From a virus (Duplodnaviria; Heunggongvirae; Uroviricota; Caudoviricetes): a stretch of DNA of 6,193 nt. The DNA lies in the IMG/VR virus record IMGVR_UViG_2778261502_000008. One strand, written 5' to 3'. Below the pieces are notes generated by a model. It saw nothing but the letters and a program-made list of their open reading frames with translations, did no database searches and had not been told where the DNA came from. Made by a program: the position numbers and the translations under genes. Shown piece after piece: positions 1 through 6,193 of the stretch; position 1 is the stretch's first letter, and each line of letters starts with the position of its first letter.

Positions 1-1572
1 GCTGACGTCATATTCCAGACAGCCACGGCGGATAACGTCTTTTGCCTTGAGCACCATTGCGGTTTTCATTTCCGGCGTGTAGCGGATATCGCGAGCGGCG
101 GGATAGAACGAGCGCACGAGCTGGAACACACCGACACCGAGGCCGGTGGCATCAATCCCGATGTATTCGACGTTGTATTTTTCGGTGAGTTTGCGGATGG
201 ATTCTGCCTGGGTGGCAAAGTCCATGCCTTTCCACTGGTGACGCTCAAGGATCCTGAATTTGCCACCGGCCACCACCGGCGGTGCCAGCACCACGCATCC
301 GGCGCTGTCGCCACGGTGTGACGGGTCGTAACCAATCCATACCGGGCGGGAGCCGAACGGATTTGCGGCAAACGGCGCATAGTCTTCCCATTCTTCCAGC
401 GTGTCGACCATACAGCGTTGCAGCTCCTCGAACGGGAACACCGACGCCTTGTCGTCAACAAATTCACACATGAACAGGTTTTTAAAATCATCGGCGCTGT
501 TTTCGCGTTTGAGCTGCTCAATGTCGAACAGCGTGCAGCCGCCTTTCAGGGCGTCCTCAATGGTGACAATCTGCCGCCACTGGCCGTCCGCACAGAGAAG
601 CCCCCCGGCAAGGGCGTTATGACTGACGTCGATTTCCACGCGTTCGGCGGCGCTGGCGCGTCCCCGGTTGAACAGTTCACCCGACCAGAACGGGTAGGCG
701 TCGTGCGCCAGCGTGGACGGGGTGGAGAAATAGGTCGAGCGCAGGTGGCTCTGTGAGGCCATACCTGATGCCACCTTACGCAGCACCTGAAAATTCGGGA
801 TCCAGAAAATCTCATCGACGTACAGGTCGCCGTTATGGCTCTGTGCGGTGTTGGAGTTGGTGCCGAGAAAAATCAGTTTTGCACCGTTATTGCCCAGGAC
901 AATCGGGTCACCGGTCAGGTCAACGTCAACCAGCCGGGCAAAGGCGATGATGTATTCACGGAACACATACGCCTGCGTTTTACTGGCCGACAGAAAAATC
1001 TGGTTATGACCGGTTTTCAGGGCGCGCAGCAGCGCCTCGCGGGAAAAATAAAACGTCGCGCCAATCTGGCGGGATTTCAGAATATCGCGGATGCGGTGCT
1101 CAAGCCCGGCGCGATACCAGTGCAACTGATATTCGAAAGACTGCTCAAAGAAAATCTGCTCCAGCTTTTCGATGGCCTCGTCACTGAAAAAATTCTTTTT
1201 CGGTTTGCGACGCCCGCCTTTGTTGCGGTTAGCGACGTTCGGATTAAGGTCTGCCTCGTTGCCGGTCTGACTGTAACGGTTTACCCGTGCCAGTCGTTCA
1301 ATCTGGCGTCCCAGCAGGTCAATTTCCTTGAAGTCACCGCCGGTTTTCTGCGGTTTGATGATGAGCTGAGTCAGCCGCGCTTCCAGACTCATTTCGACAC
1401 GGCTGATGGGGGCAACGCTGTCCCAGCCGTCGCGCTGTTTCCAGCTCTGCACCGTCGGGCGTTTCATCTGCAACATGGCGGCAATCTGCGGTACGGAAAA
1501 CCCCTGCCAGTACAGCAGCGCCGCCTGACGACGCGGGTCGTGTAAAAGAGTGGTGTCTGTGGTGATGGTCAT
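1..1572 (-). CDS. P: Phage terminase large (ATPase) subunit, P2 gpP-like; N-terminus at 1572, 3' end runs off the window start (partial, 524 codons visible)
   Basis: Hand translation of the minus strand from ATG (reverse complement of 1570-1572) gives an uninterrupted frame to position 1: MTITTDTTLLHDPRRQAALLYWQGFSVPQIAAMLQMKRPTVQSWKQRDGWDSVAPISRVEMSLEARLTQLIIKPQKTGGDFKEIDLLGRQIERLARVNRYSQTGNEADLNPNVANRNKGGRRKPKKNFFSDEAIEKLEQIFFEQSFEYQLHWYRAGLEHRIRDILKSRQIGATFYFSREALLRALKTGHNQIFLSASKTQAYVF... with a Walker-B-like hydrophobic-DE motif (LYVDEIFWI). Shine-Dalgarno GGCGAGG lies 5 nt upstream of the ATG on the minus strand. It is absent from the ORF track, presumably because no stop codon falls inside the window. 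The plus-strand ORFs 418..756 and 835..1545 are shadow frames of this gene. Assignment to gpP is from memory of the P2 family. Confidence 0.88.
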   Translation of the reverse strand, partial: MTITTDTTLLHDPRRQAALLYWQGFSVPQIAAMLQMKRPTVQSWKQRDGWDSVAPISRVEMSLEARLTQLIIKPQKTGGDFKEIDLLGRQIERLARVNRYSQTGNEADLNPNVANRNKGGRRKPKKNFFSDEAIEKLEQIFFEQSFEYQLHWYRAGLEHRIRDILKSRQIGATFYFSREALLRALKTGHNQIFLSASKTQAYVFREYIIAFARLVDVDLTGDPIVLGNNGAKLIFLGTNSNTAQSHNGDLYVDEIFWIPNFQVLRKVASGMASQSHLRSTYFSTPSTLAHDAYPFWSGELFNRGRASAAERVEIDVSHNALAGGLLCADGQWRQIVTIEDALKGGCTLFDIEQLKRENSADDFKNLFMCEFVDDKASVFPFEELQRCMVDTLEEWEDYAPFAANPFGSRPVWIGYDPSHRGDSAGCVVLAPPVVAGGKFRILERHQWKGMDFATQAESIRKLTEKYNVEYIGIDATGLGVGVFQLVRSFYPAARDIRYTPEMKTAMVLKAKDVIRRGCLEYDVS

Positions 1573-1581
1573 GAATACCTC

Positions 1582-1600
1582 GCCGTGATGAATACACGGC
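1582..1600. repeat. Short inverted repeat GCCGTG-N7-CACGGC inside the 34-bp gap between the divergent P and FI starts
   Basis: Read directly: 1582-1587 gccgtg, 7-nt spacer atgaata, 1595-1600 cacggc, which is the exact reverse complement. It sits at or beside the inferred deletion junction. Function unknown. Confidence 0.35.
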
Positions 1601-1606
1601 AAACCG

Positions 1607-2656
1607 GTGCTGATTACCAATGTGCAGAGTGCAATTGCAAAGGCCGGTAAAAAAGGCACGCTGGCGGCATCGTTGCAGGCCATCGCCGACCAGTCAAAAC
1701 CGGTCACCGTTGTCGTGCGCGTGGAAGACGGCACTGGTGATGACGAGGAAACGAAACTCGCGCAGACCGTTTCCAATATCATCGGCACCACCGACGAAAA
1801 CGGTCAGTACACCGGACTAAAAGCCCTGCTGGCGGCGGAGTCGGTAACCGGTGTTAAACCGCGTATTCTCGGTGTGCCGGGACTGGACACCAAAGAGGTG
1901 GCTGTTGCACTGGCATCAGTCTGTCAGAAGCTGCGCGCTTTCGGGTATATCAGCGCATGGGGCTGTAAAACCATTTCCGAGGTGAAAGCCTACCGCCAGA
2001 ATTTCAGCCAGCGTGAGCTGATGGTCATCTGGCCGGATTTCCTCGCATGGGATACGGTCACCAGTACCACCTCCACCGCGTATGCCACCGCCCGTGCGCT
2101 GGGTCTGCGCGCTAAAATCGACCAGGAGCAGGGCTGGCATAAAACGCTGTCCAACGTCGGGGTGAACGGTGTTACCGGCATCAGCGCATCTGTATTCTGG
2201 GATTTGCAGGAGTCCGGCACCGATGCTGACCTGCTGAACGAGGCAGGCGTCACAACGCTGATTCGCCGCGACGGTTTCCGCTTCTGGGGTAACCGTACCT
2301 GCTCTGATGACCCGCTGTTCCTCTTTGAAAACTACACCCGCACCGCGCAGGTGCTGGCCGACACGATGGCTGAGGCGCACATGTGGGCGGTGGACAAGCC
2401 CATCACCGCAACGCTGATTCGCGACATCGTTGACGGCATCAATGCCAAATTCCGTGAGCTGAAAACAAATGGCTATATCGTGGATGCGACCTGCTGGTTC
2501 AGCGAAGAATCCAACGATGCGGAAACCCTCAAGGCCGGAAAACTGTATATCGACTACGACTATACCCCGGTGCCTCCTCTTGAAAACCTGACCCTGCGCC
2601 AGCGTATTACCGATAAATACCTGGCAAATCTGGTCACCTCGGTTAACAGCAATTAA
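1607..2656 (+). CDS. FI: Contractile tail sheath protein, P2 gpFI-like, apparently N-terminally truncated (GTG start, no convincing RBS)
   Basis: 349-aa ORF beginning at GTG 1607, sequence (V/M)[41 protein letters not shown]...[11 protein letters not shown], which I recognise as tail sheath. An in-frame TGA at 1589-1591 sits 18 nt upstream, so the frame cannot extend further. P2 FI is about 396 aa as I recall, and this ORF begins at an internal position of that protein (around residue 45-50). There is no Shine-Dalgarno before 1607. It may be annotated as a CDS or as a pseudogene. Confidence 0.8.
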
Positions 2657-2668
2657 GGAGCCTGACCG

Positions 2669-3187
2669 ATGGCAATGCCGCGCAAACTCAAGTTAATGAA
2701 CGTCTTTCTGAACGGCTACAGCTATCAGGGCGTTGCAAAGTCCGTCACGCTGCCAAAACTGACCCGTAAGCTCGAAAACTATCGCGGTGCGGGGATGAAC
2801 GGCAGCGCACCGGTAGACCTCGGCCTTGATGACGATGCGCTGTCAATGGAGTGGTCGCTCGGTGGCTTCCCGGATTCGGTTATCTGGGAGCTTTACGCCG
2901 CAACCGGTGTGGATGCCGTGCCGATTCGTTTTGCAGGCTCTTACCAGCGCGACGATACCGGCGAAACGGTGGCCGTCGAAGTGGTCATGCGTGGACGTCA
3001 GAAAGAAATCGACACCGGCGAGGGTAAACAGGGAGAAGACACCGAGTCGAAAATCTCCGTGGTCTGCACCTATTTCCGGCTGACGATGGACGGCAAGGAG
3101 CTGGTCGAAATCGACACCATCAACATGATTGAGAAGGTGAACGGCGTCGACCGGCTGGAGCAACACCGCCGAAATATCGGCCTGTGA
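2669..3187 (+). CDS. FII: Tail tube protein, P2 gpFII-like (172 aa), apparently intact
   Basis: ATG at 2669 preceded by AGGAG-type RBS (ggag at 2657-2660) immediately after the FI stop (taa 2654-2656). Protein MAMPRKLKLMNVFLNGYSYQGVAKSVTLPKLTRKLENYRGAGMNGSAPVDLGLDDDALSMEWSLGG... matches my recollection of P2-family major tail tube. The sheath-then-tube order is canonical. Confidence 0.9.
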   Translation: MAMPRKLKLMNVFLNGYSYQGVAKSVTLPKLTRKLENYRGAGMNGSAPVDLGLDDDALSMEWSLGGFPDSVIWELYAATGVDAVPIRFAGSYQRDDTGETVAVEVVMRGRQKEIDTGEGKQGEDTESKISVVCTYFRLTMDGKELVEIDTINMIEKVNGVDRLEQHRRNIGL

Positions 3188-3194
3188 TTTTCAT

Positions 3195-3215
3195 CCGGTC
3201 AGCCTGGCTGACCGG
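3195..3215 (+). other. GC-rich stem-loop (8-bp stem, 5-nt loop) just downstream of the FII stop; no U-tract
   Basis: Read directly: ccggtcag (3195-3202), cctgg (3203-3207), ctgaccgg (3208-3215). It begins 8 nt after the FII stop codon (tga 3185-3187). The following sequence is ttaaccctg, not a T-run, so this is not a canonical intrinsic terminator. It could be an mRNA stability or attenuation element between the abundant tube gene and the downstream genes. Confidence 0.45.
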
Positions 3216-3243
3216 TTAACCCTGATTCAGAAGTGAGAAAACC

Positions 3244-3300
3244 ATGAACAAAGAAAATGTGATTACCCTGGACAAACACAAAAATCACTGCGCGAGCTGA
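3244..3300 (+). pseudogene. E: Remnant of tail assembly chaperone gene E (gpE-like): about 10 native codons, then out-of-frame sequence and a stop after 18 codons
   Basis: ATG at 3244 with upstream purine-rich RBS (aagtgagaaaacc). Translation is MNKENVITLDKHKNHCAS*. MNKENVITLD matches the gpE N-terminus as I recall it; the rest does not look like a chaperone, and the programmed-frameshift E/E' region is absent. Consistent with a deletion breakpoint near 3270-3280. Confidence 0.5.
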
Positions 3301-3353
3301 ACGGTCACGCATCCCGTATTGAGGGATTTCGCAAGACCAGCGCACAGCTCGCC

Positions 3354-4730
3354 GTGACTGGTCATGCACTTGAAAAGGCACGGCAGGAGGCCGAAGCCCT
3401 TGCCACACAGTTTAAAAACACTGAACGTCCGACCCGTGCTCAGGCGAAAGTGCTGGAATCCGCAAAGCGTGCGGCGGAGGACTTACAGGCGAAATATAAC
3501 CGCCTGACAGATTCCGTTAAACGCCAGCAGCGGGAACTGGCCGCTGTGGGAATTAATACCCGCAATCTTGCACATGATGAGCAGGGACTGAAAAACCGTA
3601 TCAGTGAAACCACCGCACAGCTTAACCGTCAGCGTGATGCGCTGGCGCGTGTCAGTGCGCAACAGGCAAAACTTAACGCAGTAAAACAGCGTTATCAGGC
3701 CGGAAAGGAACTGGCCGGAAATATGGCCTCGGTGGGCGCTGCCGGTGTGGGGATTGCGGCGGCGGGAACGATGGCCGGAGTTAAGCTGCTGATGCCCGGT
3801 TATGAGTTTGCGCAGAAAAACTCAGAATTGCAGGCCGTGCTCGGAGTGGCAAAAGACTCCGCCGAAATGACCGCACTACGCAAACAGGCGCGCCAGCTCG
3901 GCGACAATACCGCCGCCTCGGCGGATGATGCGGCCGGTGCACAGATAATCATCGCGAAAGCGGGTGGGGATGTTGATGCCATTCAGGCGGCAACGCCGGT
4001 CACGCTGAATATGGCGCTGGCGAACCGCCGCACGATGGAAGAAAACGCCGCCCTGCTGATGGGGATGAAATCCGCCTTTCAGCTTTCAAACGATAAGGTC
4101 GCTCATATCGGGGATGTTCTCTCCATGACGATGAACAAAACCGCCGCCGATTTTGACGGCATGAGCGATGCGCTGACCTATGCCGCACCTGTGGCAAAAA
4201 ATGCCGGTGTCAGCATTGAAGAAACCGCCGCAATGGTCGGGGCGCTGCATGATGCAAAAATCACAGGCTCAATGGCGGGGACGGGAAGCCGTGCCGTGTT
4301 AAGCCGCCTGCAGGCACCGACGGGAAAAGCATGGGATGCACTCAAAGAGCTTGGCGTGAAAACCTCAGACAGCAAGGGAAACACCCGGCCAATATTTACC
4401 ATTCTGAAAGAAATGCAGGCCAGTTTTGAGAAAAACCGGCTCGGTACTGCCCAGCAGGCTGAATACATGAAAACTATTTTCGGGGAGGAGGCCAGCTCAG
4501 CCGCCGCCGTGCTGATGACTGCCGCCTCAACCGGAAAGCTGGACAAACTGACCGCTGCGTTTAAAGCCTCAGACGGGAAGACCGCCGAGCTGGTAAATAT
4601 CATGCAGGACACCCGCGTTGATGAATCACTGGCCGCGCTTTATGGCGATATCGGTAAACAGGCGGAGTCGCTCATCGGTAAGGCTGGCAGTATGGCGACC
4701 AGATTCACGGGTATGACGGGGGCGGGATAA
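3354..4730 (+). CDS. T: Tail tape measure protein (gpT-like), truncated: lacks a credible start, is about half the expected length, and its C-terminal ~39 aa appear to derive from tail protein gpU (in-frame T'-'U fusion)
   Basis: The track ORF begins at GTG 3354, but the same frame is open back to a TGA at 3234-3236 with no ATG, which suggests a missing N-terminus. The body carries a typical tape-measure core: a Gly/Ala-rich hydrophobic segment (GNMASVGAAGVGIAAAGTMAGVKLL) and a helical Ala/Gln/Lys-rich region. It is 458 aa against roughly 815 aa for P2 gpT (from memory). The ORF ends ...ELVNIMQD | TRVDESLAALYGDIGKQAESLIGKAGSMATRFTGMTGAG*, and its stop overlaps the D start (ataATG) in the way the U/D junction normally does. 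Confidence 0.72.
   Translation: MTGHALEKARQEAEALATQFKNTERPTRAQAKVLESAKRAAEDLQAKYNRLTDSVKRQQRELAAVGINTRNLAHDEQGLKNRISETTAQLNRQRDALARVSAQQAKLNAVKQRYQAGKELAGNMASVGAAGVGIAAAGTMAGVKLLMPGYEFAQKNSELQAVLGVAKDSAEMTALRKQARQLGDNTAASADDAAGAQIIIAKAGGDVDAIQAATPVTLNMALANRRTMEENAALLMGMKSAFQLSNDKVAHIGDVLSMTMNKTAADFDGMSDALTYAAPVAKNAGVSIEETAAMVGALHDAKITGSMAGTGSRAVLSRLQAPTGKAWDALKELGVKTSDSKGNTRPIFTILKEMQASFEKNRLGTAQQAEYMKTIFGEEASSAAAVLMTAASTGKLDKLTAAFKASDGKTAELVNIMQDTRVDESLAALYGDIGKQAESLIGKAGSMATRFTGMTGAG
4611..4730 (+). pseudogene. U: Probable 3'-terminal remnant of tail gene U (gpU-like), fused in frame to the truncated tape measure ORF
   Basis: The last 39 codons of the 3354..4730 ORF (TRVDESLAALYGDIGKQAESLIGKAGSMATRFTGMTGAG) resemble the C-terminus of P2-family gpU as I recall it. 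No separate ~160-aa U ORF exists between T and D. The 4-nt stop/start overlap with D (taATG at 4728-4732) is the expected U-D coupling. Confidence 0.45.
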
Positions 4731-5893
4731 TGCTGGATACGCTGACATTTGATGCAGGCAGTACGCTGACGCCGGATTACATGCTGATGCTCGACAGCAG
4801 GGATATTACCGGCAATATCAGCGACCGTCTGATGAGTATGACCCTGACGGATAACCGGGGCTTTGAGGCTGACCAGCTTGATATTGAACTGAACGATGCC
4901 GACGGGCAGGTCGGGCTGCCGGTTCGTGGCGCTGTCCTGACGGTGTATATCGGCTGGAAAGGTTTTGCCCTGGTATGCAAAGGGAAATTTACCGTTGATG
5001 AGGTTGAACACCGGGGCGCACCGGATGTGGCCACCATCCGCGCCCGGAGTGCAGATTTTCGCGGGACGCTCAATTCCCGCCGGGAAGGCTCCTGGCATGA
5101 CACCACGCTCGGTGCGATTGTTGAGGCGATAGCCACCCGTAACAGGCTGGAAGCCAGTGTCGCTCCGTCACTGGCCGGAATTAAAATCCCGCACATCGAC
5201 CAGTCGCAGGAGTCTGATGCAAAATTCCTGACCCGCCTTGCTGAACGCAACGGCGGTGAGGTGTCGGTAAAAATGGGAAAACTGTTGTTTCTCAAAGCGG
5301 GGCAGGGGGTGACGTCCAGCGGTAAAAAAATCCCGCAGATTACCATCACCCGCAGCGACGGCGACCGTCATCATTTTGCGATTGCTGACCGTGGAGCCTA
5401 TACCGGCGTAACGGCGAAGTGGCTTCACACCAAAGACCCGAAGCCGCAAAAGCAGAAGGTAAAACTGAAACGCAAAAAGAAAGAAAAACACCTGCGCGCA
5501 CTGGAGCACCCGAAAGCGAAACCGGTCACGCAGAAGAAAGCGCCAAAAGTACCGGAAGCGCGCGAAGGTGAATACATGGCCGGTGAGGCTGACAACGTTT
5601 TTGCCCTGACCACGGTATATGCCACGAAAGCACAGGCCATGCGTGCCGCTCAGGCGAAGTGGGATAAACTGCAACGGGGCGTTGCGGAGTTCTCCATCAG
5701 CCTGGCTACCGGTCGTGCAGATATTTACACGGAAACGCCGGTCAAAGTGTCAGGCTTTAAGCGTGTCATAGACGAGCAGGACTGGACAATCACTAAGGTG
5801 ACACATTTTCTGAATAATAGCGGCTTCACGACGTCCTTGGAGCTTGAGGTCAGGCTTTCTGATGTGGAGTACGAAACAGAAGGTAATGAGTGA
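4730..5893 (+). CDS. D: Phage late control gene D protein (gpD-like baseplate hub, gp27/VgrG-like family), 387 aa, apparently intact
   Basis: ATG at 4730 overlapping the upstream stop. 387 aa, the length I recall for P2 gpD. Family-typical motifs are present: MLDTLTFDAG..., GFEADQLDIELNDADGQ, FTVDEVEHRGAPD, SWHDTTLGAIVEAIA, ESDAKFLTRLAE. Position immediately upstream of ogr is canonical. Confidence 0.9.
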   Translation: MLDTLTFDAGSTLTPDYMLMLDSRDITGNISDRLMSMTLTDNRGFEADQLDIELNDADGQVGLPVRGAVLTVYIGWKGFALVCKGKFTVDEVEHRGAPDVATIRARSADFRGTLNSRREGSWHDTTLGAIVEAIATRNRLEASVAPSLAGIKIPHIDQSQESDAKFLTRLAERNGGEVSVKMGKLLFLKAGQGVTSSGKKIPQITITRSDGDRHHFAIADRGAYTGVTAKWLHTKDPKPQKQKVKLKRKKKEKHLRALEHPKAKPVTQKKAPKVPEAREGEYMAGEADNVFALTTVYATKAQAMRAAQAKWDKLQRGVAEFSISLATGRADIYTETPVKVSGFKRVIDEQDWTITKVTHFLNNSGFTTSLELEVRLSDVEYETEGNE

Positions 5894-5911
5894 TGCGTTT
5901 TATTTATCTGT

Positions 5912-5940
5912 TTGTTTTATAAGGACAAATTAACTAAAAT
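5912..5940 (+). promoter_or_regulatory. Candidate sigma70 promoter for ogr: TTGTTT (-35), 17-bp spacer, TAAAAT (-10)
   Basis: Read directly: ttgttt at 5912-5917, 17-nt spacer 5918-5934, taaaat at 5935-5940, in the AT-rich D-ogr intergenic region. Predicted start near 5947-5949. A purine-rich SD (ggaagagg, 5959-5966) precedes ATG 5975. Confidence 0.5.
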
Positions 5941-5974
5941 GACACCATTAACAAAACCGGAAGAGGTGCTCGCG

Positions 5975-6193
5975 ATGTTTCATTGTCCTTTATGCCAGCA
6001 TGCCGCACATGCGCGTACAAGCCGCTATATCACTGACACGACAAAAGAGCGTTATCACCAGTGTCAGAACGTGAATTGCAGCGCCACGTTCATCACCTAT
6101 GAGTCGGTACAGAGATACATCGTGAAGCCGGGAGAAGTCCACGCCGTAAGGCCGCACCCGTTGCCGTCAGGGCAGCAAATTATGTGGATGTGA
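5975..6193 (+). CDS. ogr: Ogr-family zinc-finger late transcription activator (P2 Ogr / E. coli OgrK-like), 72 aa
   Basis: ATG at 5975 to TGA 6191-6193. Protein MFHCPLCQHAAHARTSRYITDTTKERYHQCQNVNCSATFITYESVQRYIVKPGEVHAVRPHPLPSGQQIMWM has the C-x2-C...C-x4-C zinc-finger arrangement and matches Ogr as I recall it. The track ORF from 5912 is a TTG-initiated upstream extension that overlaps the predicted promoter and is unlikely to be real. Confidence 0.9.
   Translation: MFHCPLCQHAAHARTSRYITDTTKERYHQCQNVNCSATFITYESVQRYIVKPGEVHAVRPHPLPSGQQIMWM

Follow-up and report, generated by a model that had tools for sequence, protein, structure and literature searches.

The tail genes of phage P2 lie in the FETUD operon (NC_001895), in the order FI, FII, E/E+E', T, U, and D. 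The P2 E gene encodes a protein of 91 amino acids, and a slip at the heptamer TTTTTTG gives the extended E+E' protein of 142 amino acids (PMC3091744). Intact P2 relatives match lambda G/GT and other −1-frameshift chaperone pairs both in where the genes lie, between those for the tube and the tape measure, and in logic (PMC3091744). Each of the E, E+E', T, and U products is annotated in the P2 record as an essential tail protein. P2 remnants are well known from Escherichia coli, and the locus described in this work is the same kind of object.

This work concerns a 6,193-nt stretch of viral DNA (referred to here, at its full length, as the window) that shares the gene order of the P2 FETUD operon and whose retained blocks are about 96.6 to 98% identical to P2 at the nucleotide level. 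FII, D, and ogr are full length. Relative to P2, however, the window is without 499 bp between E codon 10 and T codon 38 and without 1,376 bp between T residue 482 and U residue 121; FI is short of 45 codons and of promoter pF, and there is neither an E' extension nor a frameshift site. Whereas lambda and the intact P2 relatives carry a frameshifted chaperone pair, in the window the pair is deleted and only its first 10 codons survive.

Two further sets of sequences serve as comparisons. The first is the prophage in record CP043852.1, which occupies the same integration site and is complete from int through ogr, with an E protein of 91 amino acids, a T protein of 815, and a U protein of 159. 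This prophage is 100% identical to the window over positions 1601 to 6193 in three blocks (1601 to 3275, 3274 to 4611, and 4610 to 6193). The second set consists of P2 remnants of E. coli located between yegR and yegQ (for example, CP019944, CP010228, and metagenome contig OERK01000685), which also have decayed late regions that keep D and ogr and carry a T-U deletion. These remnants differ from the window in chromosomal site, in sequence (about 96% identity), and in the T-side endpoint of the deletion, which falls at T nucleotide 828 rather than at 1447. In their most complete form (metagenome contig L013), E and the start of T are intact, and none of these remnants has the E-T junction.

RESULTS AND DISCUSSION

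The window is the right end of a defective P2-like prophage

The window is identical to positions 3 to 6195 of NLUV01000023.1, an E. coli draft contig in NCBI assembly GCA_002233275.1. Past the window, the next genes on this contig are fieF, pfkA, sbp, cdh, and tpiA. Downstream of ogr, the sequence (L007) holds a terminator, then attR, and then fieF, and the same layout is found in L002, part of the CP043852.1 record. Given this continuation into chromosomal genes, the window represents the rightmost part of a P2-like prophage that is integrated at the attachment site between cpxP and fieF. In E. coli ATCC 8739 (CP043852.1; L002/L006), the cpxP-fieF site is occupied by the intact P2-like prophage introduced above.

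The window is therefore a remnant of a defective P2-like (Peduovirus) prophage of E. coli, situated between cpxP and fieF. It displays the P2 gene order and sequence (96.6 to 98% identity to P2) and integration at an att site beside ogr, as expected of a Peduovirus. The full set of head, lysis, baseplate, fiber, and tail genes needed for viability, together with the late promoters, is absent from the part of the prophage seen here; the region from int to Q lies beyond the end of the contig. After three deletions, the late region reads P-'FI-FII-E'-'T'-'U-D-ogr (Table 1).

Gene P, which encodes the terminase large subunit, contains the Pfam domains Terminase_5, Terminase_6N, and Terminase_6C. 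This gene is 97.6% identical to P2 positions 1422 to 3023 and 98.9% identical to the terminase gene in L006; the window and the ATCC 8739 prophage are thus close relatives rather than parent and offspring. The truncation of FI was mapped by alignment to L002, in which FI starts at position 5866 and position 6001 corresponds to window position 1601. According to the P2 −35/−10 annotation and the alignment, the promoter region of ogr is kept, at about 5912 to 5941. The stem-loop between FII and E, for its part, is native P2 sequence and lies outside the scar.

Table 1. Genes, junctions, and other features of the 6,193-nt window
Feature	Coordinates	Strand	Remarks
Terminase large subunit gene P	1..1572	−	ATG at 1572-1570; 524 of 590 codons, cut by the contig/window end
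P leader, 30 nt	1573..1602	.	Ends at junction J1; AA at 1601-1602
Tail sheath gene FI, without its first 45 codons and promoter	1603..2656	+	Pfam Phage_sheath_1 and Phage_sheath_1C, in the ORF 1607-2656
Tail tube gene FII, intact, 172 aa	2669..3187	+	Pfam Phage_tube full length (E 2e-60); P2 FII has the same length
Stem-loop of 9 bp in the FII-E spacer	3195..3215	+	From RNA folding; one base differs in P2
E stub ORF	3244..3300	+	10 gpE codons (3244-3273), 8 T codons out of frame, TGA
Junction J2	3274..3275	.	AA microhomology; 499 bp lost
Segment of tape-measure gene T (residues 38-482)	3276..4611	+	No native start; Pfam PhageMin_Tail complete
Junction J3	4610..4611	.	CA microhomology; 1,376 bp lost
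Gene U 3' end, residues 121-159 and stop	4612..4730	+	Forms the end of the T'-'U fusion ORF
Gene D, intact, 387 aa	4730..5893	+	Pfam Phage_GPD; P2 D has the same length
ogr, intact, 72 aa	5975..6193	+	Pfam Ogr_Delta; gene call in L007

The E-T scar is a 499-bp deletion

The breakpoints, the content lost, the reading frames, the loss of promoters, and the presence of the junction in two assemblies are all shown by the sequence comparisons. BLAST comparison with L002 placed window positions 1601 to 3275 at L002 6001 to 7675 and window positions 3274 to 4611 at L002 8173 to 9510. The identity of both collinear blocks is 100% to L002 and about 98% to P2, against which the window was likewise compared. 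They overlap by 2 nt (AA, 3274 to 3275), and 499 bp of intact sequence is missing between them. From this two-block alignment, the breakpoint (J2) lies at 3274/3275, in agreement with an earlier note on this DNA, which had predicted from the sequence that a deletion fuses the beginning of E to a site within T, with a breakpoint around 3270 to 3280. The same note had counted this as the second deletion scar; the scar is real, although the window holds three deletions rather than two. Since clean two-block alignments are obtained to hundreds of intact relatives, the E-T scar is not a chance feature of the sequence.

The deletion removed E codons 11 to 91, the whole E' extension with its frameshift site, the T ribosome-binding site, and T codons 1 to 37. 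What is left of E starts at its native position between the tube and tape-measure genes, with its native start codon and ribosome-binding site: ATG 3244 lies 57 nt past FII, the ribosome-binding region at 3228 to 3243 is identical to that of P2, and the FII-E spacer differs from P2 by a single base. The ORF that begins there comprises 18 codons, MNKENVITLDKHKNHCAS, which read as MNKENVITLD followed by KHKNHCAS and a TGA stop at 3298 to 3300. Mapping at the protein level assigned the first 10 residues to gpE residues 1 to 10 and the last 8 to T sequence read in the wrong frame. This out-of-frame reading and the stop that follows it result from the size of the deletion, as 499 cannot be divided by three. 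The 18-codon stub had been described correctly in the earlier note from the sequence and the ORF list.

The chaperone domain of intact gpE, PF10109 (Phage_TAC_7), covers residues 7 to 85 according to Pfam and thus falls inside the deleted stretch, the window keeping only residues 1 to 10. No protein of about 91 amino acids with a Phage_TAC_7 domain is present at the E ORF of the window. The P2 frameshift site is annotated at position 19685 and the E' frame runs to 19857, both within the 499 bp that were lost; consistent with this placement, the slippery heptamer TTTTTTG occurs nowhere on the plus strand of the window. The E locus of the window therefore holds no working member of the gpE chaperone family. 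The absence of E/E' and of the programmed frameshift site, as proposed in the earlier note, is thereby borne out.

Two other readings of the stub were considered and rejected. A natural short-E variant would have to occur among relatives, yet all relatives have the extra 499 bp, and the last 8 codons of the stub are out-of-frame T; none of the relatives pairs an 18-codon E with a T gene starting near 3354. As for a sequencing error that hides a full gpE frame, no single-base correction restores E because it is 499 bp, not one base, that is absent.

The tape-measure frame has lost its start and runs into U

The T frame is closed upstream by TGA 3234 to 3236 and is open from 3237 to 4730. T sequence resumes at residue 38, and the junction codon CAA replaces the GAA codon for residue 37. 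No ATG, GTG, or TTG occurs in this frame from 3237 until GTG 3354, from which gene callers draw an ORF of 458 amino acids (3354 to 4730). In the 20 bases before this GTG (agaccagcgcacagctcgcc), no Shine-Dalgarno-like or purine-rich run is present. The earlier note had described T as left without a start codon, with GTG 3354 as its first possible start and no clear ribosome-binding site; the comparison with intact relatives accounts for this description, as T codons 1 to 37 and the ribosome-binding site are deleted and GTG 3354 is the codon for an internal valine, V64, of intact T.

The domain PF10145 (PhageMin_Tail) is retained in the T segment of the window (E 9e-46, profile positions 1 to 201 of 201). 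As a coding sequence, T is nevertheless incomplete: of its 815 residues, 1 to 37 and the C-terminal 333 (483 to 815) are gone, and the codons for U residues 121 to 159 are attached at its 3' end. This fusion was produced at J3, where the loss of 1,376 bp removed T residues 483 to 815 and U residues 1 to 120 and joined T residue 482 in frame to U. Because J3 fuses T to U in frame, the 458-residue ORF terminates with the stop codon of U, and this codon overlaps the start of D.

If this region were transcribed, ribosomes would be expected to initiate at E, whose initiation region is intact, and to terminate 54 nt upstream of GTG 3354 after producing a peptide of 18 residues; translation of the stub is not coupled to the T frame. 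A conceivable way around this stop would be a −1 slip within the stub that fuses E residues 1 to 10 to T residue 38 onward and so yields a working, shortened tape measure. Such a slip would make use of the intact E start codon and ribosome-binding region, and the T frame, which lies −1 to that of E, has no stop codon from 3237 through the end of the stub; the stub also contains CAC AAA AAT. Still, the stub offers no X XXY YYZ heptamer in the right register, and the product would lack T residues 483 to 815 and carry a U tail. Nor does the locus keep the chaperone, the baseplate, an intact sheath, or the promoters, and the junction occurs in one lineage only and hence gives no sign of conservation. 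We consider a working variant of this kind to have next to no chance of being correct. The E-T scar is almost certainly a deletion without function in a decaying prophage.

A third deletion removed the late promoters

At the left of the window, J1 (1601/1602, with an AA overlap) joins a point 30 nt upstream of the P ATG to FI codon 46. The deletion eliminated 13,387 bp, comprising genes O through fun(Z)/invertase (head, lysis, baseplate, and fiber functions), FI codons 1 to 45, and the pP, pO, and pF promoters. In the P2 annotation, transcription from pP starts at 3016 (23 nt upstream of the P ATG), the shared activator site occupies 3057 to 3087, pO starts at 3127, and pF lies upstream of FI. 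Window position 1602 corresponds to P2 3023, the last base of the P2 leader that is kept. With P2 sequence kept only up to 3023, the Ogr-dependent late promoters pP, pO, and pF are all gone. A search of the plus strand from 1500 to 3500 found no sigma-70-like site. On the basis of this promoter loss, the genes of the remnant other than ogr are probably silent, unless transcription enters from upstream of the contig start inside P.

The earlier note had judged the tail module nonfunctional from the loss of the chaperones. This judgment holds more strongly than it was first put: E, E+E', T, and U are all destroyed, FI is truncated, and the baseplate, fiber, head, and lysis genes are absent along with the late promoters. 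The locus is a case of ordinary prophage decay, involves no new element, and belongs to a kind of object already known. For annotation, it follows that this locus is best labeled a defective prophage containing pseudogenes (E', the 'T'-'U fusion, and 'FI) and not as encoding the 458-residue tape-measure protein listed by gene callers.

Occurrence of the E-T junction

The intact arrangement prevails. Of 5,426 complete E. coli genomes, 1,504 contain the two halves of a 101-bp probe at a distance of about 600 bp. Among phage records, 73 match at least 80% of window positions 2600 to 4800, with the matches spread across about 4.1 kb. An exact 24-mer across the E-T junction is absent from the GTDB species representatives and from IMG/VR, and a 52-nt probe that seeds only across the junction gave zero matches in 50,697 phage records. 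In the 5,426 complete E. coli genomes, this 52-nt probe gave one 28-nt match, which proved to be a single-base change (GAA to CAA) within a T gene that is intact. Only one NCBI contig and the Logan assembly of SRR3957146 are recorded as encoding the exact fusion protein. As the E-T junction was not found elsewhere, the scar is private to one lineage.

The Logan assembly contains window positions 1789 to 5767 at 100% identity, including both J2 and J3. The recovery of the same E-T and T-U junctions in a second assembly indicates that they are not assembly errors, and because assemblers do not join sequences via 2-nt overlaps, the junction is present in the reads. The two assemblies that support J2 may share one isolate or read set. 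These observations bear on an alternative in which E/E' and T are in fact complete in the genome, the 499 bp having dropped out through misassembly or a chimeric read. In keeping with such an artifact, the draft contig starts inside gene P, and the breaks of the Logan contig fall within FI and D, a hint that the sample may hold another P2-like copy, which could confuse assemblers. The identity of the junction in the NCBI submission and in Logan argues against it, however, as does the reliance of graph assemblers on long k-mer overlaps rather than 2 nt. Moreover, the window holds three separate junctions within 6 kb, all with the same type of 2-nt microhomology. An artifact is accordingly very unlikely, and we treat the junction as a genuine deletion, against which no observation speaks.

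History of the deletions

From window position 1601 to the end of the phage, there are 0 substitutions relative to L002, whereas the chromosomal flank beyond attR shows 53 differences, the first at L007 position 6333. The identity of the phage part, set against a flank that differs at 53 sites, suggests that the phage was acquired recently and that its deletions are recent too. On this sequence comparison, the same phage type sits in two different host backgrounds, and the loss of DNA by deletion without point changes in the window is what is expected of early prophage decay.

For J2, a single illegitimate-recombination event would suffice, joining E codon 10/11 to T codon 37 at the 2-nt AA. 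The route may have been replication slippage or microhomology end-joining, and the deletion probably took place after integration and recently. Three deletions with no point changes relative to an intact twin make this a clean and datable instance of deletional decay, useful for estimating the rate of erosion and for cataloguing types of junction. Beyond annotation, the locus is of little importance; it would bear on the mechanism of prophage domestication only if the features of its breakpoints truly recur.

Features of the breakpoints

All three junctions of the window have 2-nt microhomology (AA, AA, and CA). For random breaks, the probability of at least 2 nt at all three is about 0.004. 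For slippage, a homology of 2 nt is very short. The overlaps are consistent with microhomology-assisted illegitimate recombination, which we infer to be their origin. No longer gapped homology was detected around the junctions, local alignment scores being at background (p 0.18 to 0.73).

Two side observations were made on the junction sequences. The three left flanks in the window are alike (CGGC-AA, GGAC-AA, and GGA-CA), with a permutation p of about 3e-4 for a statistic picked after the data had been seen; plain random illegitimate recombination does not predict this likeness. In addition, an overlap of exactly 2 nt was present at 5 of the 7 junctions examined (binomial 2e-4). We regard the alike left flanks and the excess of 2-nt overlaps as leads only, not as findings.

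A different origin of the overlaps would lie with the DNA invertase of the phage itself, an enzyme of the Cin/Pin type, if it made site-specific deletions at quasi-crossover sites. Invertases of the Cin/Pin type cut with a 2-bp stagger, which would explain overlaps of exactly 2 nt (AA, AA, and CA) and their excess among the junctions examined. The intact relative encodes such an enzyme just upstream of FI, and its crossover sites, TTCTCNNAAACC-AA-GGTTTNNGAGAA, have an AA center. When the parental sequences of the junctions were scored with a weight matrix built from real half-sites, however, every one fell near or below zero, compared with 12 to 17 bits per half for true sites, and the sum scores for J2 gave p values of 0.43 and 0.96. 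Such enzymes also strongly prefer inverted sites. In terms of the 12-2-12 site architecture, the junctions share the central 2 nt, while their half-site scores are at background, and deletion at invertase quasi-sites was rejected; we hold it to be extremely unlikely.

The U-side endpoint of J3 (CA followed by CCCGCGTTGATG) is the same nucleotide as in the P2 remnants at yegR-yegQ, which are found in other strains and are about 4% divergent. A search of the literature returned nothing relevant on a hot spot in U or on the yegQ remnants. A pseudo-origin for the P2 A nickase at this recurrent endpoint was set aside after inspection by eye, the nick context of ori (GCGCCTCGGAG) being unlike GCTCACCCGCG. 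A broader proposal, prompted by the alike left flanks, the overlaps of exactly 2 nt, and the endpoint shared with an older remnant, is that P2 prophage deletions are not random and arise either by sequence-directed breakage and joining or by copying of the junction of a second remnant through microhomology-primed synthesis. This proposal is improbable; if it held, a defined mechanism would underlie prophage domestication, and the E-T scar would count among its products.

Three deletions share the U endpoint, but they reduce to two independent events, as the FI/U361 junction of strain S3 is derivable from the T828/U361 junction, which is found in L013, the fullest of the yegR-yegQ remnants, with the arrangement FI-FII-E-T(1-828)/U361-D-ogr. 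The S3 junction can be obtained by a second deletion between two copies of the 7-nt sequence CGGCACC, one of which was created by the older T828/U361 junction.

Deletion junctions within the window

The DNA missing from the window was defined by reference to the CP043852.1 prophage, its closest intact P2-like relative. At J1, the junction between the terminase gene P and the sheath gene FI, codon 46 of FI now abuts the P leader, of which 30 nt remain ahead of the P start codon. The late promoters pP, pO, and pF were lost with the deleted stretch, and every head, lysis, baseplate, and fiber gene is absent through the same deletion. At J3, residues 121 to 159 of the tail protein U are joined in frame after residue 482 of the tape measure protein T. 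Because this fusion is in frame, gene callers report a 458-aa "tape measure protein," which is in fact a 'T'-'U chimera.

Coordinates of junctions and other sequence features
Feature	Position	Details
J1 deletion junction	window 1573-1602, breakpoint 1601/1602	13,387 bp lost; AA microhomology
J3 deletion junction	window 4610/4611	1,376 bp lost
Deletion junctions in other E. coli (E423, AF44)	L003 5240-5245; L004 5298-5299	
Shared U endpoint	window 4610-4625; L005 4009-4020; L010 5004-5015; L013 (metagenome contig) 3473-3485 (reverse complement)	
Compared left flanks	window 1594-1602; 3267-3275; 4603-4611	
Stem-loop	window 3195-3215, FII-E spacer	9-bp perfect stem; CCGGTCAGC CTG GCTGACCGG

Comparison with deletions in other P2-like prophages

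On the U side, the T-U deletion ends (CA/CCCGCGTTGATG; slash, breakpoint) at the identical nucleotide in the window and in P2 remnants located between yegR and yegQ, which are ∼4% divergent. This set of remnants comprises eight complete genomes, strain S3, and one metagenome contig; the form found in strain S3, in which FI is joined to U, is explained as a secondary deletion via the 7-nt repeat CGGCACC.

Large, independent deletions that link P or O to an internal site in FI are also present in the complete genomes of E. coli E423 and AF44, and the chaperone gene E and T are intact in both strains. The right breakpoint in AF44 (AA/CCGGTG) reads nearly the same as that of J1 (AA/ACCGGTG), and the two lie 245 bp apart within FI.

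The left flanks are alike at all three window junctions (CACGGCAA, CTGGACAA, and GCAGGACA), a likeness with a P value of ∼3e-4 in a post hoc permutation test. Seven P2 deletion junctions, from the window and from other genomes, were examined; five have an overlap of exactly 2 nt.

Mosaicism, FII-E spacer, and contig ends

The tail region (window 1601-6193) is 100% identical to the CP043852.1 prophage, whereas the terminase gene (window 1-1602) shows only 98.9% identity, with 18 mismatches. Judged by this difference in sequence identity, the window phage is mosaic relative to that prophage.

Lying between the tube and chaperone genes, the stem-loop in the FII-E spacer, which lacks a T run on its 3' side, may be an element for RNA stability or processing. 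This structure is native to P2, whose version differs by one base, a change that would weaken the stem.

The NCBI contig (NLUV01000023.1) begins within gene P, at the window start; the Logan contig assembled from SRR3957146 ends inside FI (window 1789) and the tail gene D (window 5767). These contig breaks suggest that the genome harbors another P2-like copy, which breaks the assembly graph; such a copy, if present, could serve as a trans source of tail functions or as a partner for recombination.
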